Positions 17,519 through 39,014 of a stretch of DNA of 64,000 bases are shown here, piece by piece. The notes under the pieces are model-generated. The model was not told the DNA's origin and did not search any database. It was given only the letters and a program-made list of their open reading frames with translations. Made by a program: the position numbers and the translations under genes. The stretch comes from a plasmid. Within the stretch, counting starts at the first letter, position 1; each line of letters begins with the position of its first letter. Where the stretch lies: sequence record NZ_LC532224.1. One strand, written 5' to 3'.

Positions 17519-17869
17519 TTATTTTTTCTTGAACGGGTTAAGTCTGGTGAGATTAGAGAGTGCCCCTCCCGGAGGCAAAATTCCCGTCCTTTTATATTTG
17601 TACACGCCATTTAATTTCATTGTCTGGATTCCAAGATTAATAAGCGTGACAAGTTTAAGGGTATACAGGAGTGTAAATTGGGGAGCAACCTGAATAAAAA
17701 CTAATAACAAGCCTGCACACATTACACGTAGCCATGCCGCGTACTCCATGCTCAGCGGACGCTTGAAATAGAATCTTTCGAGCAAATCAACTGTCTTATT
17801 ACTGATCCACGCCGCCGCCACTGAGAGTAACAACACGATGCACACCATAATGCCCAGTTCCATTTTCAC
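17519..17869 (-). CDS. small membrane protein
   Basis: 116 aa, hydrophobic helices; overlaps 3' end of upstream gene in another frame. Confidence 0.3.
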   Translation of the reverse strand: MKMELGIMVCIVLLLSVAAAWISNKTVDLLERFYFKRPLSMEYAAWLRVMCAGLLLVFIQVAPQFTLLYTLKLVTLINLGIQTMKLNGVYKYKRTGILPPGGALSNLTRLNPFKKK

Positions 17870-18704
17870 TCCCTTCTCTTTTAGTCTGTTTAAGTTGAGG
17901 CTTAGCCACAGTAGTTTTGTTTTTTGCTTTTTTCTTAGGTTTGGTATGGTGAAACAGAAAACAATCCACCATTACCCAACCATTTTTATATCGAGCCACC
18001 AGCATCTTCTGGCTGGGGTAATGAGCATGAAACAGCATTTTCACGTCCATGGTGCCCATCAACGACTGTTTGCGCTTTAGCTCATCCTCAGCCATCTGAA
18101 ATTCTTGTAAGAATTCTGAAGACAGACGCTGACGCAGAATTCTTATGGCACTGGAGTTTTCATCATTCTTTGCCAGGTGCCCGAAGCGTACAAGTGCCTT
18201 GTGGGTTATCTGGATGGGTCCCAGATGAGAGCTGAGCTGTTCGTACTGCCAGAAGTAGGTCAAATCCACCTTAACCCAGCTGATGCTGTCCAGCAGAGCC
18301 TCGTTCATGATGGTTCCGGACATAGGTACCATTGTCAGCCTGGCCAGACGCATATGTATGTAGTCCGTAAGCAACCTCAGCGACTCAGGAACGTTTTTAT
18401 TGAGTAGGAGATGCTGAAGCACCGGGGTTGCGGTCTGCCAACACAGATTGCGCCCGTCAGGCAGGAAAGCAAACTTTTGATCGTCAGGCGCAGAGTTCGA
18501 AGCGTTTTCCTTACGAAGCAAAAAATAATGGCCGCACAGCAGCTCTGCTCTTACCTGGTCCTCGTCAGGGTCATGTCGGGCTTTACTTAGATCAACGGTT
18601 AGCACAACGCGGTTAATCGCATCAGCGTGATATTTTTTTACCCAGACGCAGACACGATAGAGACGCTCATCGATTTTCTGGCTGGCTGTGGAAATCCATT
18701 GCAT
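17799..18704 (-). CDS. hypothetical protein
   Basis: 301-aa ORF in co-directional AT-rich array. Confidence 0.45.
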   Translation of the reverse strand: MQWISTASQKIDERLYRVCVWVKKYHADAINRVVLTVDLSKARHDPDEDQVRAELLCGHYFLLRKENASNSAPDDQKFAFLPDGRNLCWQTATPVLQHLLLNKNVPESLRLLTDYIHMRLARLTMVPMSGTIMNEALLDSISWVKVDLTYFWQYEQLSSHLGPIQITHKALVRFGHLAKNDENSSAIRILRQRLSSEFLQEFQMAEDELKRKQSLMGTMDVKMLFHAHYPSQKMLVARYKNGWVMVDCFLFHHTKPKKKAKNKTTVAKPQLKQTKREGSENGTGHYGVHRVVTLSGGGVDQ

Positions 18705-18713
18705 TGTTGTTCC

Positions 18714-19709
18714 TTAATTTTCGGGGCTGACAATGAAAATGCCCAGCTCAGCCCCCGGCACGAGTTCTGTATATTTCAGGCTCAGCTTCCGTTGGTTGGA
18801 CGGACCCTGGCTGTTTTCAGGAGCCCAGTCAGAGAGCGTTTTTAATTGAGGTATGTTGCCTGCTGCGAAAATGGGCAAGGATGCTTTTACTACTGAATAA
18901 TCAGTCTCAGCATATTTATTCCCGTTTCGTTCCTGCCCTTCAGGCCTAAATGCAAAAATGTGAGCAATCGGAACAGGGAAAGAGTTAGTTCGACAAAGGC
19001 GATAAGATTCGCCCTGCTTCAGTGGGTGAAATTCAAGACGGTGTAAAGCCTTATCGATATTAGACACGACATTCAAATTGGTAGTTGCTACATTTTTTAC
19101 TTCTGAGGCTCTCCTGCGCTCCAACAAACTCACAAGTTGCTCTGCTGTTTTAACTTCCTGGTTTCGGTTTAGCCGCCATGAAAAAGTAACTTTTTTAAGC
19201 TGGGACTTGATGAAAAGGATATTTCTTGTTGAGTGCATAGCGACAAGGCCCGGGAGCTTCTTGTGCACTTTATCAAAACGGACATTCTTTTTATTATCGA
19301 TACGCCTCATTGCCGCAGCAAAATCATTTTTTGCTTCGTTTATAGAAGTGATCAAGCTTTCGAGAAGATCTGCTCTTTCGGGGACAATGATTAGACCCGG
19401 GTATTTAGTGGTTACTTTGGTGGAATCATGACTTAATGACTCTATGTCATCCACACAGATGTCAGTAAGTGCCTGAATAATTTCCTCAACCGAAGCATCG
19501 TCTTTAATACTAACCCTGATGGGTTTAACCTGCTTCAAGCGCTCTTCTGTTCTAGATACGGTGGAGACAGTCATCAGGTTTGCCATCATCGGGGGGGTGT
19601 TCGAAAGAAAACACTTGAGCGAGTCGATGCGTTCCAGAATCTGGTCACGAAAATAGGGCAAATCGTCATAACTCATACGTTTCTCCAGGCTCATGTTATT
19701 TCCAATCAA
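18714..19709 (-). CDS. hypothetical protein
   Basis: 331-aa ORF; exact start uncertain. Confidence 0.45.
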   Translation of the reverse strand: MIGNNMSLEKRMSYDDLPYFRDQILERIDSLKCFLSNTPPMMANLMTVSTVSRTEERLKQVKPIRVSIKDDASVEEIIQALTDICVDDIESLSHDSTKVTTKYPGLIIVPERADLLESLITSINEAKNDFAAAMRRIDNKKNVRFDKVHKKLPGLVAMHSTRNILFIKSQLKKVTFSWRLNRNQEVKTAEQLVSLLERRRASEVKNVATTNLNVVSNIDKALHRLEFHPLKQGESYRLCRTNSFPVPIAHIFAFRPEGQERNGNKYAETDYSVVKASLPIFAAGNIPQLKTLSDWAPENSQGPSNQRKLSLKYTELVPGAELGIFIVSPEN

Positions 19710-19766
19710 TTTTGCTGCCCAGGCTGACCTTGCAGAACATAAATGTCATGTAAACCTCTAAAGAAG

Positions 19767-20213
19767 TCATTTTGAAACAGCTTTCACAGCATGCGATTTA
19801 TGTTCGATAGGGCTCATGAACAAAGGATGATAATGGAGACGCCATGGATAGTGGATAGTCTTACCCACCTGGGTGATCCGATTGAGGCGAAAACGACCAT
19901 TTATACAGTCAACTGACCAAAGCCCGGGAGAAACTAACCTCTTCCAGCGGTAAAAAGAGAAACCTGCAACACAGAGGTCATGCTCCAGGAAATGTTGAGT
20001 TTCGACGACGCGAACTTTTATCAAAAACCCCAGCATTGGCGAAAACCAGATCAACAACCATGTTGGCGGCAGGATGACTTTGTTCAGGAGATGATCTGTC
20101 ATAAGCAAGGCAGATAACATCAGAAAACTGATAGTCAACCACAGGGCCATCCAACCGGCCCATACGCGGCTCTGACAGGGTTTCCATTCGAGAAGAAAAA
20201 GTTTTTTATGCAT
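19767..20213 (-). CDS. hypothetical membrane protein
   Basis: 148 aa, Trp/Leu-rich hydrophobic. Confidence 0.35.
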   Translation of the reverse strand: MHKKLFLLEWKPCQSRVWAGWMALWLTISFLMLSALLMTDHLLNKVILPPTWLLIWFSPMLGFLIKVRVVETQHFLEHDLCVAGFSFYRWKRLVSPGLWSVDCINGRFRLNRITQVGKTIHYPWRLHYHPLFMSPIEHKSHAVKAVSK

Positions 20214-20229
20214 TCTGCCCCGCCTAATT

Positions 20230-20766
20230 TTAATGTATTGCCGAAGTATGCTGCATCATGATGGTGGTGCGGGGAAAGATTTCAAACTTCCACAATTCTG
20301 AAGCCGTGTTCCAACCATGAAAGATCCCGTCTCCACAGCGAGTGTTAAAAGCAAGAATTTCATCCCTGACCTGGTAAGCGAGCACTTCTGGCATATCAAT
20401 AAACTCAGGTAAGGAAAGAAGAATTCCATGGATAACTTCTCCGGTTAACTTACTCATAACCTCTTCCTCAGACAGGGCAGCGTCCGGGAACAAACACAAC
20501 GGAAGTGAAAAACAACATAGGTCAAGACCAATAGCAGCCCTTCCTGCGTCGTAGCCTTCTTCATTAACGACAAAACGAAAGAATTTTTCTGTCTCACCCC
20601 GTAATGATGACGGTCCTTCAGACGGAACTTCAATACCACTGAAGACTTTATCGGTCCAGTTGGTAAAAGGACTGGTGAAAACCCAACAAATTAAGGATAA
20701 CGCCAGCTCTTCCTTAAACATACGTTCAGTGCCGGTAGTTCTGGAAAGTTGCTTTTGAGTACTCAT
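20230..20766 (-). CDS. hypothetical protein
   Basis: 178-aa ORF. Confidence 0.4.
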   Translation of the reverse strand: MSTQKQLSRTTGTERMFKEELALSLICWVFTSPFTNWTDKVFSGIEVPSEGPSSLRGETEKFFRFVVNEEGYDAGRAAIGLDLCCFSLPLCLFPDAALSEEEVMSKLTGEVIHGILLSLPEFIDMPEVLAYQVRDEILAFNTRCGDGIFHGWNTASELWKFEIFPRTTIMMQHTSAIH

Positions 20767-20839
20767 GTTTTACCTGTTGCATGAAATTATTGATGTTATA
20801 TAAACACAACCGGCATTTTATCTAATAGGTTTGAAAACA

Positions 20840-21097
20840 CTAAAAATCGCAAATGCTGGTACCTTTCTGTTTTAAGAGATTTTCAAGGTAAAGTGAGGCT
20901 AGATCAATTGGCTGGTTCTCTTCAAGACAGGCTCGCACAAGATCTTCAATAGAGACCGAATCAACCCCCCTTCCCTGTAAAATTTCTTTAGCAGATGCCA
21001 GCGTTTTATGAACGCTTCGACTTAGTTGTAATCTGACTTGTGTGCGGGTATCAAAAAGACAATCTTCTGTGACACTTTGTGAAACGGTTCTACTCAT
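20840..21097 (-). CDS. hypothetical small protein
   Basis: 85-aa ORF. Confidence 0.35.
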   Translation of the reverse strand: MSRTVSQSVTEDCLFDTRTQVRLQLSRSVHKTLASAKEILQGRGVDSVSIEDLVRACLEENQPIDLASLYLENLLKQKGTSICDF

Positions 21098-21104
21098 TGA
21101 AAAA

Positions 21105-21695
21105 TCACTCCATTTCTGGGATCGAATGAAAATTAACAGCTATAGATGTATCAGGTTTCCCATTTTCTACGATACTCAACCACGTACGCGCTGAGATTTG
21201 TTGTTCACAGACGAGTATGTAACCTGTTCCCTGTTGATGATGTAGCTCAAGAGCTTTTAGGATAGGCTCTGAATGAGGTCCGAGAGCATCACGCGTGTGA
21301 ATAAGCGTTTGCTCTGGCAATACGTTGCTAAGCATAGACAGCAGAACATTACGCTCATCCTCATTATCCGACAAAACAAGAATTATACGAAAACCCGTTT
21401 TTATACGAAATCTGATTTCTGAAACTAACTTTCTTAATCTTAATTTATATATGACCAGGCGGAATCGAGTCATCAGTAAAGAGACCACTGTGAAGATAAC
21501 GATTACTGCGCCATATTTTGACCTGTAGAACCACCAGTTAAGGCCTCCAGCAACTATCAGGATTAACATTAAAATTAAACTCCCATAGAAAAAAAGTGCT
21601 GGGTAGCGAGTTGTCTTTCCTTCAATTAGTGCTGAGGCAAATATCAAAATGGATATTCCGTAAATTACCCAGTCAAAAATACTTTCTCCAATCAT
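21105..21695 (-). CDS. membrane-anchored hypothetical protein
   Basis: 196 aa; N-terminal TM helices, soluble C-terminal domain. Confidence 0.4.
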   Translation of the reverse strand: MIGESIFDWVIYGISILIFASALIEGKTTRYPALFFYGSLILMLILIVAGGLNWWFYRSKYGAVIVIFTVVSLLMTRFRLVIYKLRLRKLVSEIRFRIKTGFRIILVLSDNEDERNVLLSMLSNVLPEQTLIHTRDALGPHSEPILKALELHHQQGTGYILVCEQQISARTWLSIVENGKPDTSIAVNFHSIPEME

Positions 21696-21739
21696 TCTTT
21701 AGTGAACATCCTTAAAAGTGGAAATGTAGGTTTATGGGT

Positions 21740-22045
21740 TTATGCATTTTCCTGATGGCCTTGACAACCAAGGATTTCACAGAAATTGTCACAGTGTGAA
21801 GCTGTAACAAAGCGCTCTCCACGTTCGAATCGCTCAACCAAATCCTTTCTTACTTCACTTCCAGGTTTCTGGAAGATGTACTCAAGCTGGAGATCCTCGG
21901 CCGTTGAAAGTAGTCGTTCTATGCTGAAATCAACATGGTAAAAGCAAAACTGATTATCAACCGGGGGAAAGTTGCTTTTGGTACTGTTCTCGTTTTTGGA
22001 TTTTAGTTCATTCATGAGCTCTCCTTGGTTGAGAACAGTATACAA
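21740..22045 (-). CDS. hypothetical Cys-containing small protein
   Basis: 101 aa; C-terminal CDNFCEILGC. Confidence 0.35.
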   Translation of the reverse strand: MYTVLNQGELMNELKSKNENSTKSNFPPVDNQFCFYHVDFSIERLLSTAEDLQLEYIFQKPGSEVRKDLVERFERGERFVTASHCDNFCEILGCQGHQENA

Positions 22046-22278
22046 ATCTCTTTAGGGATTTTTTTTCGTTAATAGCACTTTTTTGAGTTTAAAGAGTATG
22101 TTCATACCAGAGCATTAGAGGCTACGAAAAGGATAATGGAATTAGAAAGATAGATTTTAAGTGGTGATGTAAGGTGGGATAGGTAGAAGAGGAGTAGACG
22201 CTTGTAAGCGAGGCAAAAAAAAGGCACGGAAACCGTGCCATAAGAGTATGTGAGAAAAAATCAAAATCAGGGAAAGAA

Positions 22279-23235
22279 TCAAGCAGCTTGTGAAACTGAA
22301 TCTCCAACTGCAAGATTTAAATTTCTTAGGTTATCGAAAACTTCAGATACTAAGTCATTACGGTCGTGGATTTTAATCCGCCCACCGGTTAACTCTGAAA
22401 CATAAACGGTATGGCAGAGGTCAGTAACCACTTCGCCGTATTCATCAACGACTTCCAAAGATGCAATCATCGGAATATAAGAAGCCGCAGCATAGCTCTC
22501 ATAAATACTTATTATGGAGTCATTGTTGCGTCGAGAAATTACCCTACCAGAAGGTAAAGCCTCATCTTCCATATAGCAATCAGATAGGTCCTCACAGAAG
22601 TCATTTTCTTTAAGTGAAATATTAAGGGTCAATTCACTGTTGATAGAGCGTGAATAAGAATATTCACTCAGTTTATAGCAAGCCAAACTTATATCACTAA
22701 AAGTTTCATAAGCTTTATAGAGGCTCGATGTTATAGACTCAGATACAAATGTTATTAGTCCAATAAAATGAGTATCCCAGAACTGTTGCAAAGCAAAACG
22801 GGCAATCATAACCTGACCATCAACCTGCATCAGTCTGTTATATTCATCCCGGTCATAACCTTTCGACTGAGAAACATCATTAGACATGCTAAGAACTTCA
22901 CTACAAACATCATCATATTCAAAACGGCTAGTTGCAAAGTGTTTTCCTGAAATCTCAAGGTACTGACCAGAGACTGCGTCAAACACCTCAAGAAAGTAAC
23001 AGAGTCGAGATTTTAAAGATTCTCTGTTTAAAGCTTCTATTTCATTCTCAGAGATACTATCGACATATAAATCAACAGCATTCTTGAGTTCAATAGCTTT
23101 GATATTACAGGTAAAAGAAAGCTCGTCACTTTGACAATGGCAAACACTTAATACTATATCCGCCTCATCAAAATCTATGCCAAGATAGCTCAGAACTGCT
23201 CGGACATAGTTTTTATCATCAGATGAATGTGTCAT
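22279..23235 (-). CDS. paralog-family protein A (unknown function)
   Basis: ATG at 23235 behind GAGGTAGTGTAT; clear similarity to 23407..24345 product. Confidence 0.55.
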   Translation of the reverse strand: MTHSSDDKNYVRAVLSYLGIDFDEADIVLSVCHCQSDELSFTCNIKAIELKNAVDLYVDSISENEIEALNRESLKSRLCYFLEVFDAVSGQYLEISGKHFATSRFEYDDVCSEVLSMSNDVSQSKGYDRDEYNRLMQVDGQVMIARFALQQFWDTHFIGLITFVSESITSSLYKAYETFSDISLACYKLSEYSYSRSINSELTLNISLKENDFCEDLSDCYMEDEALPSGRVISRRNNDSIISIYESYAAASYIPMIASLEVVDEYGEVVTDLCHTVYVSELTGGRIKIHDRNDLVSEVFDNLRNLNLAVGDSVSQAA

Positions 23236-23406
23236 ATACACTACCTCAAATTTGAGAGGAAGTGCCCCAGAAGGGAAGCGACTTCCCCACTGGGTTAGAT
23301 AAAAGTTTGGTTAAGCTAAAAGAAGATGCCAGCGACAGATTTTACATTGTCATAGACAAGTGTCTTCAGCCAACCAAAGTTACTTTTTTGGACTGAAGCA
23401 AAAGGA

Positions 23407-24345
23407 TCATTGAGACGCGTTACGAAAATCGTCAAAAGCTTCAGTTATTAGTAATGTGCGATCAGTTACTCTGTATCGGTCATTACTTTCGAGAGATACG
23501 TAAGTTGAATGCGAAGAATCACAGACAACACGCCCTCTTTTATTGATCAATCTTACTTCCATCATCACCGGCACATTGATAATTGAAGCAACATCGGTAT
23601 AGAGGGATATGAGGGCATCATTGTCACAATATAACGCCCCGTTCCCATCAAATGTATCGTTAAACTTAATATATATATCTGGCATATTTGCCGGATAATC
23701 ATCAGTATTGAAATCAATGCATAACTTTAAGTCATCATTAATACGGCGATTAATCTTATGCTGCCCAACACGTACAAAGCCATGTTCAACAGCTTTGATA
23801 ATCCTTAAAGTTTCATTAAGACAATCTGTAATTCTTTTCTCGACAAATGAGATAAAGTCACCAAAGTCGGAATGAAAAAACTGTTTAAGTGCAAATTTCG
23901 CAACTAACACTTTCCCATCCACCTTCATTTTATCGAGATAAAGATTTCTTATAGCATCAGTAGAAGAATTAGCTTTAGATAACTCTTCACAGTCATTAAT
24001 AATCATTGAAACAATATCAATAACTTTAACTGGGCTTAAAGTATTACTATATCCGCGAATATCAAACGTAAAAAATCCGAAATTCTTAAATACTCCAAGA
24101 AAATAAATTATTTTTTGTTTCAAAAGAATAGAATCGGAGTAAGATGCGTTGTGCTTTATTAGTTCAGATATGTAGAGATCCAACATACAATTTAAATTAT
24201 CGATATCTACATCGTAATCAAAGGTTACTTTGTCGAACGAAGTATCAGATAATTGAACGGTTATATCGTCAGCGGGAACATTAAGGCCTAAATTTTGATA
24301 AAGAAAGGCACTAACAAATTCCACGTGGTCAGATTCTTTAAACAT
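23407..24345 (-). CDS. paralog-family protein B
   Basis: 312 aa; aligns with 22279 product (VDGKVLVAKFALKQF vs VDGQVMIARFALQQF); SD GAGG 8 nt upstream. Confidence 0.55.
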   Translation of the reverse strand: MFKESDHVEFVSAFLYQNLGLNVPADDITVQLSDTSFDKVTFDYDVDIDNLNCMLDLYISELIKHNASYSDSILLKQKIIYFLGVFKNFGFFTFDIRGYSNTLSPVKVIDIVSMIINDCEELSKANSSTDAIRNLYLDKMKVDGKVLVAKFALKQFFHSDFGDFISFVEKRITDCLNETLRIIKAVEHGFVRVGQHKINRRINDDLKLCIDFNTDDYPANMPDIYIKFNDTFDGNGALYCDNDALISLYTDVASIINVPVMMEVRLINKRGRVVCDSSHSTYVSLESNDRYRVTDRTLLITEAFDDFRNASQ

Positions 24346-24361
24346 TTACACTACCTCATGA

Positions 24362-24411
24362 CTAAAAAGGAAGTGCTTCCCACCGGGAAGCAAGTTCCCG
24401 GATGGGTTAGA
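24362..24411 (-). repeat. intergenic hairpin pair
   Basis: GGAAGTGCTTCC + CCCACCGGGAAGCAAGTTCCCGGATGGG; sense strand reads stop, ATCTAACCCA box, hairpins, T5, GAGGTAGTGTAAATG. Confidence 0.65.
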
Positions 24412-25332
24412 TTAATTATAAAAGAGTTCTTCAGAAGGTACATGCATTTCTGGTTTGAACTGTTTTAAGGAGTTGTTTATAGCTTTTCGATATAACCCTG
24501 AAGAGTGTGGCTTAAACATTTGATATTCCGTAACGAGCAGAGGAGACGTAAAGCATCCTAAGTTCACTAGTGAAATATTTGATGTTTCTTCACAAACATC
24601 TAATTCAGCGTATATCCGCCTCTTCATTACCCTGCCTGCTAAATAGCGACGAACATGATTTATAAACTTGTCCGCATCTGATATAGAATTAACTATATAA
24701 TCAGATGTGACTATCTGATTAGATACAGTTTCAGGTATAGCTTCGGCTATTATTTTTACGTTCATTTCATAATCAACACTATGGAAGCAAGCAAGAATTT
24801 GTGGCTTCGCGCTTTCTAAAATCTTTTCAAGAACAGAAAAAATCAGAGAGAACTCGTTTAAAATTCGCTTTTGTATAAGTCCATGTAGATGTTTTATGAA
24901 AGGAGAACCGTGTTCAACAAGGCCTAGTATAAGATCCTTAGAGGCCAAATCTGAGCGGTAATAAACGTATTCTAGATTATCCCGGTTAAATCCTTTGATA
25001 AGCAAATCAGGCTGCTCTGAGACCAGTCGTAAATGAGTTGAAGCTATAGAAACTTCAAAACGAAAGTTCGCGAGATTTACAGGGCCTGCTTTTAATGTAG
25101 CCGCTTCGGAAAAATAAATGAAAAGAGGATGCAAATCATCGTTACCACAGTAAAGATGGTCTGCGCCCTTAAGATATTTCACCAAATGAGGTAGAAAAGA
25201 TATTACTGGAATATCAGCCACAAATCGAATATGCCGAAATGGTTTTGAATCCAAATATATATTTTCCACTACAGCGCCAACAAAACCCATTTTAACAAGA
25301 ATAGATTCAACTAACTTTTGTATCGCATTCAT
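24412..25332 (-). CDS. paralog-family protein C (more distant)
   Basis: 306 aa; same size class and organisation; SD AGAGGG. Confidence 0.5.
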   Translation of the reverse strand: MNAIQKLVESILVKMGFVGAVVENIYLDSKPFRHIRFVADIPVISFLPHLVKYLKGADHLYCGNDDLHPLFIYFSEAATLKAGPVNLANFRFEVSIASTHLRLVSEQPDLLIKGFNRDNLEYVYYRSDLASKDLILGLVEHGSPFIKHLHGLIQKRILNEFSLIFSVLEKILESAKPQILACFHSVDYEMNVKIIAEAIPETVSNQIVTSDYIVNSISDADKFINHVRRYLAGRVMKRRIYAELDVCEETSNISLVNLGCFTSPLLVTEYQMFKPHSSGLYRKAINNSLKQFKPEMHVPSEELFYN

Positions 25333-25339
25333 TTAAATA

Positions 25340-25379
25340 CCCTCTTAATAGAGGGATTTCTCCCAAAGGGAGAAATCCC
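25340..25379 (-). repeat. intergenic hairpin element (CCCTCT-TAAT-AGAGGG plus GGGATTTCTCCC-AAA-GGGAGAAATCCC)
   Basis: 12-bp perfect stem; SD of downstream gene lies in the smaller stem. Confidence 0.7.
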
Positions 25380-25400
25380 TATGGGAGAAAATAATTTTAA

Positions 25401-26337
25401 TTAATAATTGTAGCGAAGCGCATGTTCTTTTTCACTAAGATGGTTTTCATATTCCGACTTACCAGAACTTAAACACTCTTTGAAAAAGACCTTTGAAAAA
25501 TTCTTCAAGTCACTTCGGTTGTTAATTTCTTTGTCAGACATCAACTTAGCTGAGTGTGAGGTATCCACAGGCCCCAACCACCATTCATATTTAATATAAA
25601 CACAATTGGTTTTTGTATGTCCATTTAGAAATCGTTTTGCATTTCTAAGTATTTTTCTACAACCGTTAAGGTCTGAAAGTAAGATATCTGGAGCAATGAG
25701 CTCTTCCAGAATATGACCAGGTAAGCCTTTCCTAAAAAGCTCAACATCGTAACTACAATACCAGTCACGATAATTAAAAGCTTTAATAAGTCTTTCAGGT
25801 GTATCCAAAGATATCTTATTCAGGATTTTTAATGCAAAGCATACAGCATCTTTTAACAACTCGTGCACCTCAACATTGATAAATGAGAAAAACGAGCTTA
25901 ATTCTTTCTCTAAGGAATTATACAACTTACCGTAAATATCCTGAGAAAAAAGATACTGCAATCTTTCTTTATTATAAGTGCAATTCGAAATTGAATAGAC
26001 TTCTCCTCTTTCGATTTTGCACCCTTCCCTTAAAACTATAGGAAACCTCAAATGGTTAACAATGAAAGAATGATTCTTTCTTTGCTTCAAAGCATCTAAT
26101 TGAAATTTCGTAATTTCCTCCAGATTTGCATCTTCAAAACCTGGAAAGGGAATATCACAGAAACAAGAACTATATGCTTTTGCTGATTCATACATAAACT
26201 CCAGTGAAACATCAGCATCAAAAGACATACCAGAGAACATGCCCTGCCCATTGTCTAAAAATGTAATGTTTTTAACCTGTATTTTTTTATGTTGAACAAC
26301 CAAAAAGGCATTAATGATTTTTTCGATAATTTTCATG
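25401..26337 (-). CDS. paralog-family protein D (more distant)
   Basis: start reassigned to ATG 26337 (MKIIEK) with SD GAGAGG; the longer ORF-track start reads through the intergenic hairpins. Confidence 0.5.
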
Positions 26338-26351
26338 TGATCCTCTCTCAA

Positions 26352-26395
26352 TAAAAAAGGGATCACTCCCATATGGGGTGTGATCCCCACATGGG
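26352..26395 (-). repeat. intergenic hairpin pair
   Basis: A6, GGGATCACTCCC, ATATG, GGGGTGTGATCCCC, CCCACATGGG. Confidence 0.65.
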
Positions 26396-26405
26396 TATAA
26401 TTTAA

Positions 26406-29721: not shown

Positions 29722-29744
29722 ATTTTGCTCCTTATTCCTTCATG

Positions 29745-29790
29745 GAGCAAAAAGACCCACCGGGGCCTTTTTGCCCCGATTGGGTAGAGT
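29745..29790 (-). repeat. intergenic element with alternative folds
   Basis: GCAAAAAG..CTTTTTGC competes with ACCCA-CC-GGGGC-CTTTTT-GCCCC-GAT-TGGGT. Confidence 0.6.
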
Positions 29791-29793
29791 TTA

Positions 29794-31800: not shown

Positions 31801-31814
31801 AGAATACCTCTTTA

Positions 31815-31863
31815 TAAAAAAGGGGTACTCACCCAGATGGTGAAGTACCCATCTGGGGTTTTT
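31815..31863 (-). repeat. A6-hairpin-T5 element with two mutually exclusive stems
   Basis: AAAAAA GGGGTAC..GTACCC versus CCCAGATGG..CCATCTGGG, then TTTTT; bidirectional terminator-like. Confidence 0.65.
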
Positions 31864-31877
31864 AATAAAGCAAACAG

Positions 31878-33005
31878 TTACCAGCCTTTGAGCTCGATAT
31901 CAAAACCATTTTCAGCATTGTCTTCCTGTTGCGAAACTGATTTCTCAGGTTCAGCTACAGAATCAGTGTTTGAAAACGTGCTGTTTTTTATATCGTTCTC
32001 TACGACAGGTTCAACCTGAAACACATTTGTTGAATCTAAAATAGCTTCAATACCTGTGTTCTGTAGCGCGTTCGGTTCTGTTTGTGAGCTTTGATTAAAT
32101 GATCTGGTAATAGATTCCAACCAGTCAGTAACCTTTTGCTCTCCTGAAATAATACGCTTTAACATTGAAGCATCACTCATGAAATAAAACCACTGCTGTA
32201 ACACCGCAACGTCGCGAGGTTCAGAAATGGCACCTTTAGGTAAATTATTCATTATGTGTTTTATAGCTTCTGCAAGTACTGCCGCCTCTTTATGTATAAA
32301 CATGAAGCTAATGATCTTATTTTGCATTTGCTTCAGTCGGTCAATAGTACTTGAGCGCAAATTATTATTTTTACTAATTTTTTCATAAACCCTCATTGCT
32401 TCTTCTGCCAGATCTGTTATCAATTGTTCCTGATAGTAGTCCTGGGTTTCATCACCTTCAACGCTAATAGGCGTAAAAGGAATAAAGTGAGCAATATTAA
32501 ATCTAAAGGATTTTATGAAATCATCTTTAGTTAATTTCAACTGATCAATCAAAGAAGACATTCTTGGGCTTCTATTTTTTTCAGCCTCAATATGCATCTC
32601 ATAATTGTCTACAACGTTTTGAATACCTGCCTGAAACTCTCGTTCAATCTCTTGGGCCCCTTCCAGAAACTCTTCCATACTGGAAACTGGTAAAATCCAC
32701 ATATTGCTATAGCGGATGCACAAGCGTGAGCAAAGGGTTGATATTCTGCTGGTAATCGTACTTTTGAAGCTAAGGGCTTTTATGTCAATCCAACGTACTT
32801 CGCTTTTAGATACGCTTTTTTGATCCGTAATATCATCTCCATCATAAGACAAATCGATTTTATCGGTTCGACGCGATCCTTGACAGCCACTTATTTCAAT
32901 TTTTGTTATAACTGCACCTTCCAGTAAATCTGGATATGATTTTGCAAAATTCTCAGAGATTTGTTTTGCAGATACTTTGTTAAGCATTGAAGTATTTAAA
33001 GTCAT
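31878..33005 (-). CDS. hypothetical protein
   Basis: 375 aa from ATG 33005 (SD GGAG); ORF-track start 33017 is non-ATG. Confidence 0.45.
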   Translation of the reverse strand: MTLNTSMLNKVSAKQISENFAKSYPDLLEGAVITKIEISGCQGSRRTDKIDLSYDGDDITDQKSVSKSEVRWIDIKALSFKSTITSRISTLCSRLCIRYSNMWILPVSSMEEFLEGAQEIEREFQAGIQNVVDNYEMHIEAEKNRSPRMSSLIDQLKLTKDDFIKSFRFNIAHFIPFTPISVEGDETQDYYQEQLITDLAEEAMRVYEKISKNNNLRSSTIDRLKQMQNKIISFMFIHKEAAVLAEAIKHIMNNLPKGAISEPRDVAVLQQWFYFMSDASMLKRIISGEQKVTDWLESITRSFNQSSQTEPNALQNTGIEAILDSTNVFQVEPVVENDIKNSTFSNTDSVAEPEKSVSQQEDNAENGFDIELKGW

Positions 33006-33373
33006 GGGTTTCTCCAAAAAAAAGGGGAAACCCTCCCCAACGGGAAAGATTTCCCGATAGGGTTGATATTAAAGCTTCTCTGGTGCAATTAAAAGAATAC
33101 CGGGAAACTCAGCGGCAACATCATCATTGCCCATTGCTCCCTGATACATATAACCTTTTAATTCCATTTCTTTAATTAGACCTTCCATATTTATTTTACC
33201 ATCATGATAAAACAATAAAGAATAGTCGTTATTCAGTTGCATAAGTCCAGTAAAATTAGTTCCGTTTTTTGCTATAGCAATGGTAGCAGCACCATCCGTA
33301 CTTAAAAACGCACTAAATTCAAGATGGGATAACTCTGAGATACAAATATCAGAGGTTTCATAACAAATCCCAT

Positions 33374-34432
33374 CTAACTCGACTTTTTTGCTGTGAAATA
33401 CTCCAGCGATTTATCCTTGTCTTCGCCAAGAGAAAGATCTATAGCTTGAAGAACAAGATCGACCACATGTAAAGGTAAAGCAGAAGCAAAAGCTATTTTG
33501 AAAGTGTCAAGAAGACTAAAGGTTTTTAACGTCATCGACGTGCCAACCCAAGCTACTAATTGACGAATATCCATCACACTGTCTTCTGTACCAGAGTCAT
33601 TTACTGCAATCGCTACTCTTACGAACTTCTCAATGACCTGAAAAGGCAAAGAGCTATATCGTTTAGTAAGCACATTGGTTAAAGCAACTTTGTCGGGCTT
33701 CTCCATTTCAACTATCAAGAACCGCTTTATAAAAGCTGCATCTTGACGTTGAGAAGAAACGAACCGGCGAGCGCCTCCACTCATGTTTGTGTTTGCAGTA
33801 CCAATAAATCGCGTGTAGCCATTAGCAGTTATAACCTCACCACCATTAGCACTGAGTGACCAGGGCTTACGTTCAATGGGCATGTGAAGTTTTGCTGCCG
33901 TATCAGGATCGATTTTGTCCACTTCATCCAGAAGAATGAGGTGACCATTACGAAATCCCGTTACCAAATCGCTGTGTACAAAACCTGTATTACCACCATT
34001 AAGACTGCGCTCACCTTCAAGCTCATCAACTCGAATATTGCTGTTGATCTGCTTAATTGTCAGCGGCCAATTCATCATGTGGCTAATGTACATTACCATT
34101 TCAGTCTTGCCAGAACCGGACTCACCTTTAAGACACACACTTAAATCTATATCCGGACTGATAAGCAGTTTAACCACTTGTTCAAGTATTCGGGGATTTG
34201 GTATGTAGTCTTTGTTCAGCGGAGCTCGATACGAGGTTTTAGTTTTGAAAACAGGCACAGCCATCTTTGGATCCATTTCTGGAATACCAAAAAGGTCCTT
34301 TGCTAGAACTAAAAGATACTCACCTTTATCCACATAATGTTTTAACTTTATAACATCCGGGGAAAGAAGAGCTTCTAATTTTTCATAAGCATCAGAAGAT
34401 GTTTCATTTAACTTCATAGCGGCATTAGACAT
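33374..34432 (-). CDS. AAA+ ATPase, MoxR/CobS-like
   Basis: Walker A GESGSGKT, Walker B LILLDEVD, AAA_5-like layout. Confidence 0.7.
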   Translation of the reverse strand: MSNAAMKLNETSSDAYEKLEALLSPDVIKLKHYVDKGEYLLVLAKDLFGIPEMDPKMAVPVFKTKTSYRAPLNKDYIPNPRILEQVVKLLISPDIDLSVCLKGESGSGKTEMVMYISHMMNWPLTIKQINSNIRVDELEGERSLNGGNTGFVHSDLVTGFRNGHLILLDEVDKIDPDTAAKLHMPIERKPWSLSANGGEVITANGYTRFIGTANTNMSGGARRFVSSQRQDAAFIKRFLIVEMEKPDKVALTNVLTKRYSSLPFQVIEKFVRVAIAVNDSGTEDSVMDIRQLVAWVGTSMTLKTFSLLDTFKIAFASALPLHVVDLVLQAIDLSLGEDKDKSLEYFTAKKSS

Positions 34433-34489
34433 TTTTAACTCCGGTAAAATGCAAACACCGCCCTCTGGCAGATGTTTGCCAGTGGCATT

Positions 34490-35467
34490 TTATTTGAGAT
34501 TCATTTGGCAAATAGTTGCCATCAGTTTCCTGATTTGAGGCACATTATAACCAAGATGATTTCCCACTATTTCAAAAGCTTCAGACATGATCCATTCAAA
34601 ATGATTTTCGAATATTGGATTTATTTCTAACTTGCCAAAAGCGTTTCGTTTAGTTAACAGATCACATGAAACAAGCTCGTCAAACAACTCTAATGTGGAT
34701 TTAAAAGCTTTTATGTAAACATCCATAATTTCCCTGTCAGTCCATTTAACAGCCAGTTTTTTTTCTGACATTAAATAATCCTGATCAAAGAAGATGTCCC
34801 AGCCCATATCGTCATTGCAATCATGCAAAATGATTTCATCATCATTCCTGCATTCAGCTAATTTCGTGTTTTCACTAATCGAACGATGCGAATGATAATA
34901 GAGCCATGATTTTAATTCCGCTCTAAATTCACATGCATCAAGTCCATGAGATAAACAAGTGTATTCAAATGATTTTGACATATACCACCGTGTTTCAGCT
35001 TCTAAAAGTGGATTCACTGTGATATTACCATTGTCATCTTTGAAGAATAACTTTCTCCTCAACACTAGTTCTTTAATGATTTCCAAAGACTCTTCCATAG
35101 CGGATAGAAAAACAACATACACATCCTCAGGGGTCCATTCTATTACCAGACCACCCAAATCTGGGTTATATTCTTCAACCGAATATAGATAATCTGTTTC
35201 TGCTGCAAAATTAATTGTATGCAAAATCTGATTTTTAAGTAATTTGGATTTTTCATAAAGGTGATTTTCACGCCTTTCAGAATCATAATTTATCTCAGAA
35301 ATGTTACTTTCATCTGATTTAAAGTTTAATCCGGACGTGTATGCATCATTTAAATGCTCTTTGGGTGAATCAACTATTTGCGTTATTTCATCTTCATCTA
35401 TATCGAATATAGAAAAAAAACTAAGTTGATTACTACTTATTGCAGTAGCCCTAAATTTTTGTTTCAT
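34490..35467 (-). CDS. hypothetical protein
   Basis: 325-aa ORF; SD GGAG. Confidence 0.45.
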   Translation of the reverse strand: MKQKFRATAISSNQLSFFSIFDIDEDEITQIVDSPKEHLNDAYTSGLNFKSDESNISEINYDSERRENHLYEKSKLLKNQILHTINFAAETDYLYSVEEYNPDLGGLVIEWTPEDVYVVFLSAMEESLEIIKELVLRRKLFFKDDNGNITVNPLLEAETRWYMSKSFEYTCLSHGLDACEFRAELKSWLYYHSHRSISENTKLAECRNDDEIILHDCNDDMGWDIFFDQDYLMSEKKLAVKWTDREIMDVYIKAFKSTLELFDELVSCDLLTKRNAFGKLEINPIFENHFEWIMSEAFEIVGNHLGYNVPQIRKLMATICQMNLK

Positions 35468-35479
35468 GGGGACTCCAAA

Positions 35480-35509
35480 AGGAGAAATCCCATGAAGGGA
35501 TTTCTCCCC
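35480..35509 (-). repeat. intergenic hairpin sharing the GGGATTTCTCC / GGAGAAATCCC arms with the 25353 element
   Basis: GGAGAAATCCC-ATGAA-GGGATTTCTCCCC, then T-run, SD GGAG, ATG. Confidence 0.7.
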
Positions 35510-35527
35510 TTTAGGGTGGGTTTAATG

Positions 35528-35905
35528 TCAGATCTGATTAAAGCTACTTTGTCCAAAACCTTTTAGAGGTTTAGGTATGTGAGCCAACTTACTTGTTGCT
35601 ACCACTCTCATGTAGTCAAGAGGATGTTCTCTCCCTTCAATCATAATAGTATCGACAACAATATAACCGGAGACCATCAACTCATCACCCTGATTTATAC
35701 CAGTGAAACAGGTTGAATACATTTCAGGCGACACCTTGATTTGAACTGAAAATTCTCTCTCAGTGATTTCACCATCAACTTCTGTCTTCATCCTATTTTT
35801 GAGCTTTATTAACAAACCTATACTCTGGTCAGTCATTTTTTTCTCCACAGCACTGATAACTATCCCGGACACTTTTACTTCATTGATATATTCAAGATAT
35901 GACAT
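35528..35905 (-). CDS. possible OB-fold ssDNA-binding (SSB/PriB-like) protein
   Basis: 125 aa; beta-rich pattern VKVSGIVIS...FSVQIKV...GDELMVSGYIV resembling SSB/PriB OB fold; weak. Confidence 0.3.
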   Translation of the reverse strand: MSYLEYINEVKVSGIVISAVEKKMTDQSIGLLIKLKNRMKTEVDGEITEREFSVQIKVSPEMYSTCFTGINQGDELMVSGYIVVDTIMIEGREHPLDYMRVVATSKLAHIPKPLKGFGQSSFNQI

Positions 35906-35962
35906 TTTCCGCTCCTCGATTTGTTCAAAGAGAAGCCCCGTTAGGGTTCCCCCTTAACAGGA

Positions 35963-36835
35963 TTAAATAAATTTATTAGTTACATACATGAACGTGCAGA
36001 CTACCAAACAGGCAATTCCGGCAATATGTAACCAATTTCTTGTTGGTTTAGTTGGTGCAATCGCTAAAGAGTTCTCCAACTTCTCTGTTACAAGACGTCG
36101 ATTCTCTGCTTTAGCCGCATCATCTAAATATTGAGTTTCACGCTTAGCGAGAGTCTCAATTTTCGATTTTATTGCATGGTCCCATCCTTTAGTTTCAAAA
36201 ACGCTTAACTCACTAAAGGTGTGCGTCATGAGATCTTCTGGGAAACCCAGTTTTTTCATTAACGGACGAATGGTATCATACATTTTTTCTACATTTTCGT
36301 AGTGGGCCTTTACTGCGACATCAAAACGCTTACGTAAAGTTAATTTTTCACGTTTGCAAATGATGTCCGAAACCCAATTTATTAACTGCTCATTTTTGAG
36401 TTCACTGGCTTTTTCAAGTGAGTAATCCAGATTATCCACGTCAAGAAATGAATTTAATCCGTATTTTTCAAACTCCTCAACAAGATATTTATCCAGTTCA
36501 GTTAAGCTTTTAAAAAGTGGTACATCTGGGGAAGCTTTAAGAAGCTTATAAGCTCCTTCGAAATCAATTTTCTTGACCACGAGCTCCACAACATCCACAT
36601 GATAATAGCTTGAATAAGCAGAAAGCTTTTCGGCCAACAAAGACACAGGCTTAAGAGACTTAAGTTCAATGATATTTGGGCCGTCCTCATTCAAAATAAC
36701 AATCAGTTCATTATCACGTTCTGTATATTTCATCAGAACTTCTAAGAGCTGTTTGTTTAGCGCCTTATCCATCTCTGGAATAATTTCACTAAAGGTTTGA
36801 TGAAGGGCTTTACTGCGAGCTTTATTTTTAGACAT
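35963..36835 (-). CDS. hypothetical coiled-coil protein with C-terminal membrane anchor
   Basis: 290 aa; C-terminal IAGIACLVVCTFMYV. Confidence 0.4.
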   Translation of the reverse strand: MSKNKARSKALHQTFSEIIPEMDKALNKQLLEVLMKYTERDNELIVILNEDGPNIIELKSLKPVSLLAEKLSAYSSYYHVDVVELVVKKIDFEGAYKLLKASPDVPLFKSLTELDKYLVEEFEKYGLNSFLDVDNLDYSLEKASELKNEQLINWVSDIICKREKLTLRKRFDVAVKAHYENVEKMYDTIRPLMKKLGFPEDLMTHTFSELSVFETKGWDHAIKSKIETLAKRETQYLDDAAKAENRRLVTEKLENSLAIAPTKPTRNWLHIAGIACLVVCTFMYVTNKFI

Positions 36836-37229
36836 TTGGGGTCACCTATATATAGTAAGAAGGAAGAAACAAATTTTTGTTTCAACACGAAGGCAAAGCC
36901 TGTCATTCATCTCCCGTAAGCTATGAACCGCCTGATTTATACTATCTGGCATTAGAAGTACGCAACAAAAATAGCCCCAGGAGGAGCTAAATTAGTTACG
37001 GTTTGGTAAATTCAGATTGCCTTTTGCAGGCATGGGAAGTGCACCAGCGACAAAGGTGACATTTTGCCGGTGGTGTCTTACAGCTTGTTTAAGCTGGCCG
37101 CTTTTCACGGCTAAATCAACGCTTAACGCGAAAGTAACTTTAAGCAAAGTTACTCAAATTTGGGAGCTGATATTTAAGCTCATTGTTTTTATACTATAGC
37201 TTTAAGCATAAGTAAATGCCCATATCGAA

Positions 37230-39014
37230 TTATTCTGTATAAAGTGGAGAAATTCGAATATTAGCTGCTTCTTTTATCTTTTCTTCACTGCATTCTCTTA
37301 AAAAGAAAGAAGGATCACCATACCACATTACAAAAAGTTGCTTTTCTGCACGCGTAAATCCAACATAAAGCAAACGTCTTTCTTCTTCTATTGCCTCCTC
37401 CCCAACTGATCTTTTACTTGGTATCTGATCCGCATTACAACTCATTATTATTACTTTATTCCACTCAAGACCCTTTGAACCATGCAAGGTTGATAGGACT
37501 ACTTTCTCTGGGCTGTATTCCTCGTCCTTCTTCCTAGGGCCTAATGACATTGCAGCAGCACGATTTATCATATTCATCCAACCAGTCTTTTCTGCCCACT
37601 GTTTACAAGTGTCTAAAGCAATTTTTGTTAAGGTTGCTGTACCTTTATTACTCCTCATCTTGATTGACGACGATTCCATCCATTTCGTAAGGTTGGCGAA
37701 ACGTTTTGCTATCTCAACTTTATCAGAACTTTCCTGGGTAAAGCGCACGAAGTTTGAATGTAATGTTTTTGTTTCGAGAGAACTGTCCTCCGGGATGGCA
37801 AGGTCGCCAAAAGTAACTTTTCTTCCTCTCATACTCAATGCCACTTCATCCAAAACTGATTCCTGTTCTCCAAACAATGCCAATACTCTCTTCATTAAGC
37901 GAGGATCATTTGATTGTCGGAAAAAGGCCATAAGGCTTAACACATCGCTTGTTTCTTTTTCATCCCAGAATGATTTACCTCCGTAACGAATTACTGGCTG
38001 TTCGATCAAACTTTCTAGCTCATCCAAGTGAGCATTATTGCGGCTTAGAATTGCCCATCCATGTGGATCCTGATTTATAAGGCTTAAAATACCCTGTATC
38101 TGTTCCTCCATATCTACATATGAACGAAAAGTGACCTTTCCCCCTCCCTTTTTTGCCGAGCGTAACTCTTTGGCATAACGGTAAACATTCTTTCCTATCA
38201 GTGCTCCGGCCACCTCTAAAATTTCAGGTTCACACCTAAAGCATGTGTTTAAGTAAAATATGTTAGGTCTGAAGTGTTTTTCAAACTGTTGAAATATTTT
38301 GACTCCTCCTGAGGATCTGAAGGAGTAGATGGCCTGATCATCGTCTCCAACTATACTCGTATAGACTCCAGCTCTTGTATGCAATGCTATCCATGAGAAT
38401 TGTATAGAGTCAGTATCCTGAACTTCGTCTACTATCAAATGTGTCAAATCTAACGTGCGCATTTTTCCCGAATGCATTTGACCGACAACAAATTTTGAAA
38501 GAGCATTGAGGTCCGCCACATGGTCTTTCTGGCATAACGCCTGATAGGTATTAAACAAATGGATCTGTTGTCTGTTATGCCGAACTGAAATCACATCCGT
38601 ATCCATTTCTCTGCCGATAGCATCAATAACGAATTCAGCTTCAGCAAACTTCATCGTTACACCGGATTCTTTCAAAGCCCGGTGAATGACAGATCTCTGT
38701 GCTGGCCCTATCAACATCTTTCCCGGCCAGCGAATCATGTCCAGTTGCTTCTTAACGAGTCCGTGAAAAGTATCCACCAGCACCCGGTCAAGATCCTTCT
38801 TGCTCAATCGCTTTTGTAACTTTGCTGCAAGTGCGTTTGTTGCAGCGCGAGTAAAGGTCACCATCCCGATTCTTGCATATGGATACTTTTTGAGAATCGA
38901 TATAACCGCTTCTATCATGGTGAACGATTTGCCTGATCCAGGCGCTGCTATCACCATATTGTTTGCGCTAGCATTCTCGATAACAGGTCTTTGCTCTTCT
39001 GTTGGCTTACCCAT
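37230..39014 (-). CDS. UvrD/Rep-family DNA helicase
   Basis: AAPGSGKS Walker A, VDEVQDTD motif II, C-terminal TLHGSKGLEW. Confidence 0.8.
   Translation of the reverse strand: MGKPTEEQRPVIENASANNMVIAAPGSGKSFTMIEAVISILKKYPYARIGMVTFTRAATNALAAKLQKRLSKKDLDRVLVDTFHGLVKKQLDMIRWPGKMLIGPAQRSVIHRALKESGVTMKFAEAEFVIDAIGREMDTDVISVRHNRQQIHLFNTYQALCQKDHVADLNALSKFVVGQMHSGKMRTLDLTHLIVDEVQDTDSIQFSWIALHTRAGVYTSIVGDDDQAIYSFRSSGGVKIFQQFEKHFRPNIFYLNTCFRCEPEILEVAGALIGKNVYRYAKELRSAKKGGGKVTFRSYVDMEEQIQGILSLINQDPHGWAILSRNNAHLDELESLIEQPVIRYGGKSFWDEKETSDVLSLMAFFRQSNDPRLMKRVLALFGEQESVLDEVALSMRGRKVTFGDLAIPEDSSLETKTLHSNFVRFTQESSDKVEIAKRFANLTKWMESSSIKMRSNKGTATLTKIALDTCKQWAEKTGWMNMINRAAAMSLGPRKKDEEYSPEKVVLSTLHGSKGLEWNKVIIMSCNADQIPSKRSVGEEAIEEERRLLYVGFTRAEKQLFVMWYGDPSFFLRECSEEKIKEAANIRISPLYTE

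Follow-up and report, generated by a model that had tools for sequence, protein, structure and literature searches.

The genes that follow traN in IncC plasmids and in SXT-family elements are the closest described relatives of the DNA analyzed here, a block of IncHI2 plasmid backbone at positions 17519-39014 of a 64,000-nucleotide stretch of record NZ_LC532224.1 (hereafter, the window). In IncC, traN is followed by two opposite-strand genes, two small genes, the AAA gene vcrx089, vcrx090, ssb, bet, exo, a DUF3150 gene and a VWA gene; we refer to this as the post-traN hde (host-defence evasion) region. Type I restriction of IncC is countered by vcrx089-090, which function on the recipient side: their deletion lowered transfer into a restricting recipient, and only expression in the recipient complemented the defect (Roy et al. 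2020, PMC7498323). In the same study, ssb, bet and exo (vcrx091-093) were found to repair CRISPR-Cas breaks. Deletion of vcrx089-90 led to 424-906-fold more EcoBI/EcoKI restriction (Dimitriu et al. 2024, PMC11602122). Protection against type I enzymes is known only for the IncC plasmids pVCR94 and pKAZ3. Both vcrx089-090 and ssb-bet-exo are listed in AntiDefenseFinder as multi-gene anti-defence systems. The counterpart operon of SXT, which starts at s089, shows the strongest SetCD peak.

Comparison of the two loci suggested that the IncHI block holds a variant of the IncC post-traN supermodule. An earlier note on this DNA, made from the letters alone, had considered the block not assignable to any described system. 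That statement has to be withdrawn, since its AAA+, DUF3150 and VWA products are homologous to, and their genes syntenic with, those of the IncC region. The three genes are:

33374-34432, minus strand: MoxR/CobS-class AAA+ ATPase, a homolog of IncC Vcrx089 (AAA_5, E 5e-28).
31878-33005, minus strand: DUF3150 protein whose disordered C-terminal tail ends in GW (PF11348, E 4e-23).
29794-31800, minus strand: CobT-like protein with an HExxH domain, an acidic disordered segment of ~150 amino acids and a VWA domain.

The IncHI AAA+ protein shares 27% identity with Vcrx089 over 275 amino acids (blastp E 4e-26; tblastn to IncC plasmids E 2e-19), and the VWA protein is 22% identical to its IncC counterpart over the full length (E 3e-21). 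Related gene orders were found in other elements. In Pseudoalteromonas, the order is AAA_5/CbbQ_C, proteins of 211 and 145 amino acids, RecT, YqaJ, DUF3150, a protein of 617 amino acids, small open reading frames (ORFs), and a primase with a Zn ribbon, DUF7146 and Toprim. In Marinobacterium, TraN is followed further on by RecT, YqaJ, DUF3150, CobT and VWA, and in Comamonas DUF3150 stands before CobT-VWA. In these three elements and in IncC, the DUF3150 gene always adjoins the CobT/VWA gene. Besides the homologous AAA+, DUF3150 and HExxH-acidic-VWA proteins, the likeness to IncC hde and SXT includes the position of the IncHI genes after traN in a MOBH/MPF-F element, their control by transfer regulators, and an intercistronic design of two hairpins, the second of which pairs with the Shine-Dalgarno sequence. 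The differences are that the IncHI AAA gene stands directly before the DUF3150-VWA pair, without Vcrx090, RecT/Bet and YqaJ/Exo, and that IncHI adds the helicase TrhI, o290, a candidate oligonucleotide-binding-fold (OB-fold) protein, o325, an in-operon primase and five tandem paralogs.

In the AAA+ protein, the Walker A (GESGSGKT) and Walker B (LILLDE) motifs are both intact. Relatives of this protein in the PDB are Midasin, NorQ, CobS and CbbQ, each of which remodels a client together with a partner that carries a VWA/MIDAS (metal-ion-dependent adhesion site) domain. The IncHI genes resemble these MoxR/VWA pairs (CobS-CobT, NorQ-NorD, CbbQ-CbbO, Midasin) in that the gene of an AAA_5 ATPase with intact Walker motifs adjoins that of a VWA protein in which the MIDAS is intact and an acidic linker is present. 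They differ in that no client enzyme (CobN, NorB, Rubisco) is encoded nearby, and in the N-terminal HExxH domain, the obligatory DUF3150 neighbour and the context of a mobile-element transfer operon. The CobT-like protein matched VWA (E 2e-7), phrog_1576 and the phrog CobT family. Its MIDAS, DISAS...TPT...TDG (DxSxS..T..D), is kept in IncHI2, HI1A, HI1B, IncC and pKLZT-1, a distant IncHI-like Klebsiella plasmid. The N-terminal HExxH motif (HEAGH/HEAAH), the conserved acidic segment after it and a segment of ~150 residues, 54 of them acidic and 3 basic, are kept from IncHI2 to IncC. Based on the Walker motifs, the MIDAS, the HExxH motif and the remodeller relatives, the proteins would form a remodelling machine of the MoxR type, with a complex of the host as its target.

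The AlphaFold2 model of the DUF3150 protein shows an alpha/beta N-terminal part, long helices (predicted local distance difference test score of ~85 in the core) and a disordered tail, and gave no informative fold match in the PDB. The protein has uncharacterised relatives in tailed phages; pattern-based scans for further relatives found none in viral contigs, and in genomes gave only four close IncHI-type loci. An acidic D-x-F-F tip follows the disordered tail at the C-terminus of Vcrx090 and of most DUF3150 proteins (12947-13855 and 16803-18080 in the IncC locus L004), and reads G-W in IncHI DUF3150. By its resemblance to SSB-type docking tips, it could hint at a common binding partner.

The earlier note had described a single array, and it correctly placed all conserved ORFs between 17519 and 39014 (~22 kb) on the minus strand. 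By regulation and spacer architecture, the block is at least three units: trhI, a proximal operon from o290 to p318, and a distal Tus-containing unit. The features that define them are:

37230-39014, minus strand: trhI, a UvrD/Rep-family superfamily 1 helicase of 594 amino acids (Pfam UvrD-helicase and UvrD_C, E 1e-32).
36836-37229, minus strand: spacer of 394 nt with a terminator-like hairpin at 36972-36989 after trhI.
22223-22239, minus strand: canonical intrinsic terminator, GGCACGG-TTT-CCGTGCC followed by T8, 40 nt after p318.
17519-22015, minus strand: distal unit of o91, o196, o85, o178, o148, the Tus-like gene, o301 and o116, with several small membrane proteins.
18714-19676, minus strand: Tus-like protein (Ter Pfam PF05472, E 1.9e-19; NCBIfam Tus models, E 7e-15).

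Expression was taken from array data for the IncHI1 plasmid R27 (Gibert et al. 2020, PMC7366339, Tables S3 and S4), and the genes were mapped by gene order; the mapping is exact for distal genes (R0183-R0195) and uncertain by about one gene for proximal genes. R0198-R0210 and R0001-2 thus correspond to p312 through o290 (± one gene), and R0184-R0192 correspond exactly to o116 through o91. The former group was expressed 3.6-23 times more strongly at 25 °C than at 37 °C, where it was mostly below detection, and was derepressed 19-115-fold in the htdA mutant at 25 °C only. The distal group was not thermoregulated and rose only 2.5-10-fold. R0003, the trhI ortholog, was not thermoregulated and was 8.7-fold up in the htdA mutant (all PMC7366339). 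A comparison of 25 and 37 °C, which had been proposed earlier, is therefore available from R27, and it bears out thermoregulation for the proximal operon and not for trhI or the distal unit. From these data and the gene mapping, about two-thirds of the block belongs to the conjugation regulon. In the R27 orthologs, the proximal operon is expressed together with the transfer genes and the distal unit is constitutive.

The gene trhI is probably a transcription unit of its own. The spacer after it is strongly structured (minimum free energy z -5.6 as RNA and -3.1 as DNA). Going by the jump in R27 expression between R0003 and R0002/R0001, this spacer would contain the promoter through which the proximal operon is regulated. 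The operon would then cover ~14.6 kb (22.2-36.8 kb) and end at the terminator at 22223-22239, which coincides with a shift in spacer structure and a shift in R27 regulation. In R27, IS2 lies inside the p318 ortholog (L006, 14238-16530), which makes a natural knockout in a conjugative plasmid. This insertion probably uncouples the distal genes from the HtdA-controlled transcript. In the distal unit, o196, o148 and o116 have transmembrane segments. The IncHI2 plasmid pSCE516-1 (L015, 1-4870) carries an ISApl1-mcr-1-pap2 unit at the o116/o301 junction (~17870), where it truncates o301.

The sequence is IncHI2 (R478-type) plasmid backbone and is 100% identical to pENT-8a4. The block occurs at an identity of at least 99% in 1,122 plasmid records (PLSDB), and IncHI1A (pH226B, R27) and IncHI1B share every gene of the array between trhN/trhI and the integrase-Hha locus in the same order, in agreement with the earlier suggestion of a conserved IncHI backbone. 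Protein identity between IncHI2 and IncHI1 orthologs is 45-87%. Because synonymous divergence (dS) is saturated between IncHI2 and IncHI1, dN/dS was taken from IncHI1B versus R27, and it was 0.06-0.24 for every gene of useful length. At the level of sequence, purifying selection acts on all block genes. The pKLZT-1 plasmid has orthologs, at 18-52% identity, of the helicase, o290, o125, o325, AAA, DUF3150, VWA, o73, primase and o173 and, from the distal unit, of o196, o85 (marginal), o178, Tus and o301. The five ~300-amino-acid genes, o91 and o148 are absent from it.

The RefSeq annotation has 23 coding sequences within 17519-39014. Together with o116 (17519-17869), which is not annotated in the RefSeq record, is annotated in IncHI1 and is 78-80% identical there, this makes 24 genes, instead of the roughly 26 of the earlier count. 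The block is AT-richer than its flanks, as had been noticed: its GC content is 0.398 (proximal 0.384, distal 0.432) versus 0.514 in the ter flank and 0.452 in the tra flank. Pfam domains (E<=0.01 and a score above the gathering score) were found in six products, namely TrhI, AAA_5, DUF3150, VWA, DUF7146+Toprim_3 and Ter/Tus. With the sequence motifs, they support the UvrD-like helicase, MoxR/CobS-like ATPase, CobT-like HExxH-acidic-vWA protein and Toprim primase that had been read from the letters. The other 18 of the 24 had no Pfam match at this threshold and no significant PHROG match, and pooled PADLOC and NCBIfam scans of the block products added no further families. About 12 motif-less ORFs had been expected; many are indeed unassigned, and the number is higher. 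After profile and fold searches, most ORFs stay outside known families, so that the result named in the earlier note as refuting its reading did not arise. In the literature, the stretch is labelled 'a hypothetical protein region (B3, ~23 kb) between terY2 and trhI'.

The other genes of the proximal operon are:

35963-36835, minus strand: o290, an orphan with a C-terminal hydrophobic tail anchor (orthologs in IncHI1A/B at 60-63% and in pKLZT-1 at 25%).
35528-35905, minus strand: o125, a candidate SSB-like OB-fold protein with a conserved tail PKPxxGFGxSxF (85-87% identity in IncHI1).
34490-35467, minus strand: o325, an IncHI-only orphan with a disordered N-terminal part of ~90 amino acids and two copies of an alpha/beta domain of ~100 amino acids.
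33069-33242, minus strand: o57, a small ORF annotated in RefSeq, with an 89-amino-acid ORF in its place in IncHI1.
29500-29721, minus strand: o73, a small conserved protein (orthologs in IncHI1 at 66% and in pKLZT-1 at 28%).
28154-29386, minus strand: P4/TraC-type primase-like protein with a degenerate Zn ribbon, DUF7146 (E 2e-19) and Toprim_3 (E 3e-12).
27363-27884, minus strand: o173, an orphan conserved protein (orthologs in IncHI1 at 69-70% and in pKLZT-1 at 28%).
22279-27284, minus strand: p292, p311, p306, p312 and p318, tandem genes for ~300 amino acids, a set of strongly diverged paralogs restricted to IncHI1/IncHI2.

For o290, searches of Pfam, PHROG and the PDB gave no relative. The best PDB match of o125 was the SSB 1se8 over 98 residues, which span the entire OB domain (E 0.08), and its orthologs matched the Pfam OB-fold and SSB models at E 0.088 and E 0.094. 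The possible OB-fold protein of the earlier note thus has weak matches on its side, and hhalign of o125 against the IncC SSB was negative. The o325 family comprises 18 clusters, all from IncHI; its internal domain duplication was detected at E 1e-11, and its confident AlphaFold2 domains had no PDB fold match. The hhalign results spoke against o290, o125 and o325 as diverged exo, ssb and bet (<1% probability against IncC Bet and Exo), and o325 and the five paralogs were rejected as Vcrx090-like proteins. The ORF between the AAA and DUF3150 genes (33069-33373; L003 20062-20331 in pH226B) codes for 57 amino acids in IncHI2 and 89 in IncHI1 and is absent from pKLZT-1, and o57 may not be a conserved gene. 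The o173 protein matched no Pfam or PHROG family.

The primase-like protein also matched the DNA primase family phrog_510 (E 3e-27). It shares DUF7146 and Toprim_3 with the P4-alpha and conjugative primases. It differs from them by its degenerate ribbon (CPFTG), by the lack of a C-terminal helicase domain and by a sequence-conserved ~75-nt hairpin that precedes the gene in all IncHI-type loci. There was no Zn_Ribbon_Prim match, and the CxxC...CxxC ribbon reads CPFTG...C/H where CPxCG is expected, which confirms the degenerate zinc ribbon seen at first reading. The primase of the Pseudoalteromonas supermodule has the same architecture and retains the Zn ribbon.

The claim of a five-member paralog family held in part. 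The products p312 and p318 are clear paralogs (E 1e-36) and p311 and p306 probable ones (hhalign 91.7%), while p292 bridges both pairs at 57-64% probability only, with collinear alignments from residue 1. The p312/p318 family had 36 representatives among 1.84 billion proteins. The five genes show the lowest ortholog identity in the block (45-64%), with dN/dS of 0.14-0.24. In pSCE516-1, p311 is split and o173 is short, in addition to the truncated o301. Together with the IS2 insertion in p318 of R27, the split p311 and short o173 indicate that individual members are dispensable for a plasmid that still conjugates.

The spacers were then compared. From trhI through p318, most of them (57-113 nt) fold into two strong hairpins, with minimum free energy z of -2.3 to -10, whereas those from o91 to o116 are unstructured (z ~0); the short structured spacers described for the whole array are therefore absent from its distal third. 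Terminator-like sites from trhI through p318 numbered 26, against 13.1 ± 3.8 expected, and the density of strongly structured 60-nt segments in 22-37.2 kb was 3.5 times that of the remaining window. Hairpin 1 is GC-rich and of a nested CCC...GGG type, and hairpin 2 holds in its 3' arm the GGAG/GAGG (Shine-Dalgarno) sequence of the following gene. This pattern is kept at each proximal spacer in IncHI2, IncHI1B and R27; three spacers keep both stems with only 44-49% identical columns. This design recurs in pKLZT-1, in the hde operon of IncC and in the genes downstream of that operon, despite protein identities of 22-52% (window 22279-36835; L004, IncC, 13856-23191; L005 16518-23837). A structure that sequesters the ribosome-binding site before vcrx089 was reported by Roy et al. 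2020 (PMC7498323). The 5' regions of the proximal genes are much more stable than those elsewhere. Predicted Shine-Dalgarno pairing was modestly higher (median 0.78 versus ~0.63 elsewhere, p ~0.006) with imperfect controls, 12 of whose 'starts' were mis-mapped and effectively pseudo-random, since the reference record departs from the window past ~51 kb. No Rfam family matched the spacers, the one far-sub-threshold match being RSV_RNA at 24 bits versus a gathering score of 105. The two-hairpin, ribosome-site-occluding spacers of IncHI and IncC may be new.

Two further intergenic features surround the primase gene:

29387-29499, minus strand: primase leader with a small covarying hairpin and a long hairpin of ~75 nt with a sequence-conserved core.
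27885-28153, minus strand: 269-nt spacer (z -7.4 as DNA) with a GC hairpin at 28122-28144 directly 3' of the primase stop.

The primase leader folds with a minimum free energy of -61.9 kcal/mol (z ~-10). Its hairpin core is ~90% identical between IncHI2 and pKLZT-1, where the flanking proteins are 28% and 45% identical, and it occurs in one copy per IncHI-type locus; it was not found in the IncC and marine loci. The leader might provide a signal for priming or serve autoregulation. At 19957-19974, in o148, another stretch matches the 18-nt arm of this hairpin with 3 mismatches; by chance, 0.02 such matches are expected. In the spacer after the primase stop, the strong GC hairpin is followed by a 16-bp perfect palindrome, GGTTATCTTATCAATA / TATTGATAAGATAACC (window 28075-28144). 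This pair may combine a terminator with an operator that precedes o173 and the paralogs.

The best explanation of these data is that the proximal operon is the IncHI version of the post-traN establishment/host-defence-evasion supermodule of MOBH/MPF-F elements. For the block as a whole, we hold, with slightly better than even confidence, that it consists of a conjugation-coupled establishment/anti-defence operon and a constitutive Tus-containing unit. Establishment, defence or anti-defence had been preferred over housekeeping in the earlier note; establishment or anti-defence fits better, and no known defence system was recognised. The block also resembles the leading-region anti-defence islands (Samuel et al. 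2024, PMC11541004), being a co-directional cluster with SSB-like and anti-restriction-related genes and many uncharacterised ORFs. It differs from them in lacking an Frpo-like single-strand promoter in its long spacers and in lacking ardA, klcA and psiB (Pfam). The oriT site (Tra1 region) lies outside the window.

Several observations weigh against this explanation. The identity of the AAA+ protein to Vcrx089 is low, at just 27%, and Pfam did not detect the CbbQ_C domain in it. A profile of 11 Vcrx090 sequences found no counterpart in any IncHI family (hhalign <=3.2%, no blastp match), and RecT (Bet), YqaJ (Exo) and a canonical SSB were not found among the IncHI products by Pfam; the experimental functions of hde are therefore not simply transferable. 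In IncC transposon sequencing, depletion was described for vcrx089-093 only and not for the DUF3150 and VWA genes (PMC7498323), and for this pair an anti-defence role is suggested by analogy only. No Frpo-like single-stranded DNA promoter hairpin was seen in the two long spacers, which fold into several short hairpins.

If the proximal operon is indeed an establishment and anti-defence module, induction of transfer would provide proteins directed at the entering single strand and at recipient defences. Conversion of the transferred strand to duplex would fall to the primase and the OB-fold protein, with TrhI as a possible helper. An AAA+ hexamer with the VWA/MIDAS adaptor and DUF3150 would act on a protein complex of the host, remodelling or disabling it; as Vcrx089-090 suggest by analogy, the target could be a type I restriction enzyme, and the conserved HExxH domain could contribute proteolysis. 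The five fast-diverging paralogs, o325 and o290 would be accessories peculiar to the lineage, perhaps serving as specificity factors. With the ribosome-binding site paired in hairpin 2, the spacers might set the translation or stability of each cistron. In a broader version, which we regard as improbable, the AAA+/DUF3150/HExxH-acidic-VWA trio would be a widespread mobile-element machine, a MoxR-type motor with a MIDAS adaptor that bears a metallopeptidase domain, which dismantles or cleaves host defences on entry. The paralogs, o325 and o290 would then be interchangeable specificity factors in place of Vcrx090, the spacers a dedicated translational control, and the leader hairpin the priming signal of the primase. 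The trio was found in IncHI, IncC, SXT-like and marine conjugative elements, and DUF3150 has relatives in tailed phages.

The alternative that survives best, itself unlikely, is that the block is an accessory to vegetative replication and termination, in which the helicase, primase, SSB-like protein and Tus serve a replicon of >200 kb and the remaining genes are passengers. A Ter/Tus domain, a Toprim primase, a UvrD/Rep helicase and an OB-fold candidate are all encoded in the block, replication initiator genes lie just past Hha in R27 and pKLZT-1, and the distal Tus unit is constitutive. However, IncHI plasmids still replicate at 37 °C, a temperature at which the primase, OB-fold, AAA and VWA genes are near-silent; these genes obey the transfer circuit of HtdA/TrhR/TrhY. 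The primase/AAA/DUF3150/VWA set also stands beside traN in integrative and other elements with unrelated replicons. This reading may apply to the distal unit alone.

It is quite unlikely that the proximal operon serves DNA processing or transfer in the donor, as a relaxosome or type IV secretion system accessory, and not events in the recipient. The IncC vcrx089-090 genes were complemented from the recipient and not from the donor (PMC7498323). In SXT, deletion of s060-s073 cuts transfer >100-fold, mostly via s063, which would suit a donor role; deletions of bet, exo, s067, s068 and s070 shift transfer <=10-fold, which speaks against it. The co-regulation with the tra operons, the position directly after trhN/trhU and the RefSeq name 'IncHI-type conjugal transfer helicase TrhI', which is an annotation label, all suggest a donor role. 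Against it, R27 with IS2 in p318 and pSCE516-1 with its three damaged genes (p311, o173 and o301) are conjugative or typed conjugative.

A defence island against phages or competing plasmids, with a Gabija-like helicase, a MoxR-VWA conflict system and the paralogs as sensors, is slightly less likely still. In PADLOC, TrhI matches GajB profiles (E 3e-42), but Rep/UvrD models score higher, and a scan of all other products did not find GajA, the OLD-family ATPase/Toprim nuclease. TrhI thus resembles the GajB UvrD-helicase at the level of the UvrD/Rep superfamily only, and the block differs from Gabija by the lack of the GajA/OLD nuclease partner. Gabija and other known defence systems were rejected, as PADLOC reported no complete system and the remaining matches were weak and generic (E>=2e-4). 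MoxR-VWA pairs do occur in conflict systems, and the region is AT-rich, like many acquired islands; its expression, however, follows conjugation and is not constitutive, and its closest characterised homolog is an anti-defence gene that works in recipients. The paralogs are the fastest-evolving genes of the block, yet their dN/dS values give no sign of gene-wide positive selection.

A real cobalt chelatase CobS/CobT carried as metabolic cargo, as some automated annotations have it from weak matches to NCBIfam CobS (E 1e-8) and phrog CobT (E 1e-4) and from CobS among the PDB relatives, is virtually excluded by the absence of CobN or any cobalamin pathway gene from the window and related loci and by neighbours that are conjugation and recombination genes; to our knowledge, an N-terminal HExxH domain and a DUF3150 partner are not part of cobalt chelatase.

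Several genes around the block were also recorded. Just outside it, a gene at 14497-15609 (minus strand), adjoining Hha, codes for a 370-amino-acid protein with a CoiA_N-like N-terminus. A protein with 32% identity is encoded beside Hha in pKLZT-1 too, and the gene is therefore part of the conserved integrase-Hha neighbourhood. The sole plus-strand gene between trhN and trhI (39194-40066) codes for a lipoprotein by IncHI1 annotation, with 40% identity in pKLZT-1; it is R0004 in R27, where its expression is high and constitutive. In the IncHI1A plasmid pH226B (L003, 27597-30876), an extra 'ATP-dependent helicase' gene and a hypothetical gene lie between the lipoprotein gene and trhN. In SXT-family elements, hotspot HS4 (traN-s063) occupies this position.

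As carriers of mcr-1, mcr-9 and carbapenemases and in multidrug-resistant typhoid, plasmids of the IncHI2 and IncHI1 types play a major part, and the block, labelled 'hypothetical' since R27 was sequenced, makes up about one-tenth of the IncHI backbone. As read from the sequence, the ribosome-site-occluding spacers and the primase-leader hairpin are concrete candidate regulatory elements. The comparison with IncC poses the question of whether the block genes set the host range of IncHI plasmids by neutralising recipient defences, and of what replaces Vcrx090. If the AAA+/DUF3150/VWA trio were a general entry machine, it would be a target for limiting plasmid spread.

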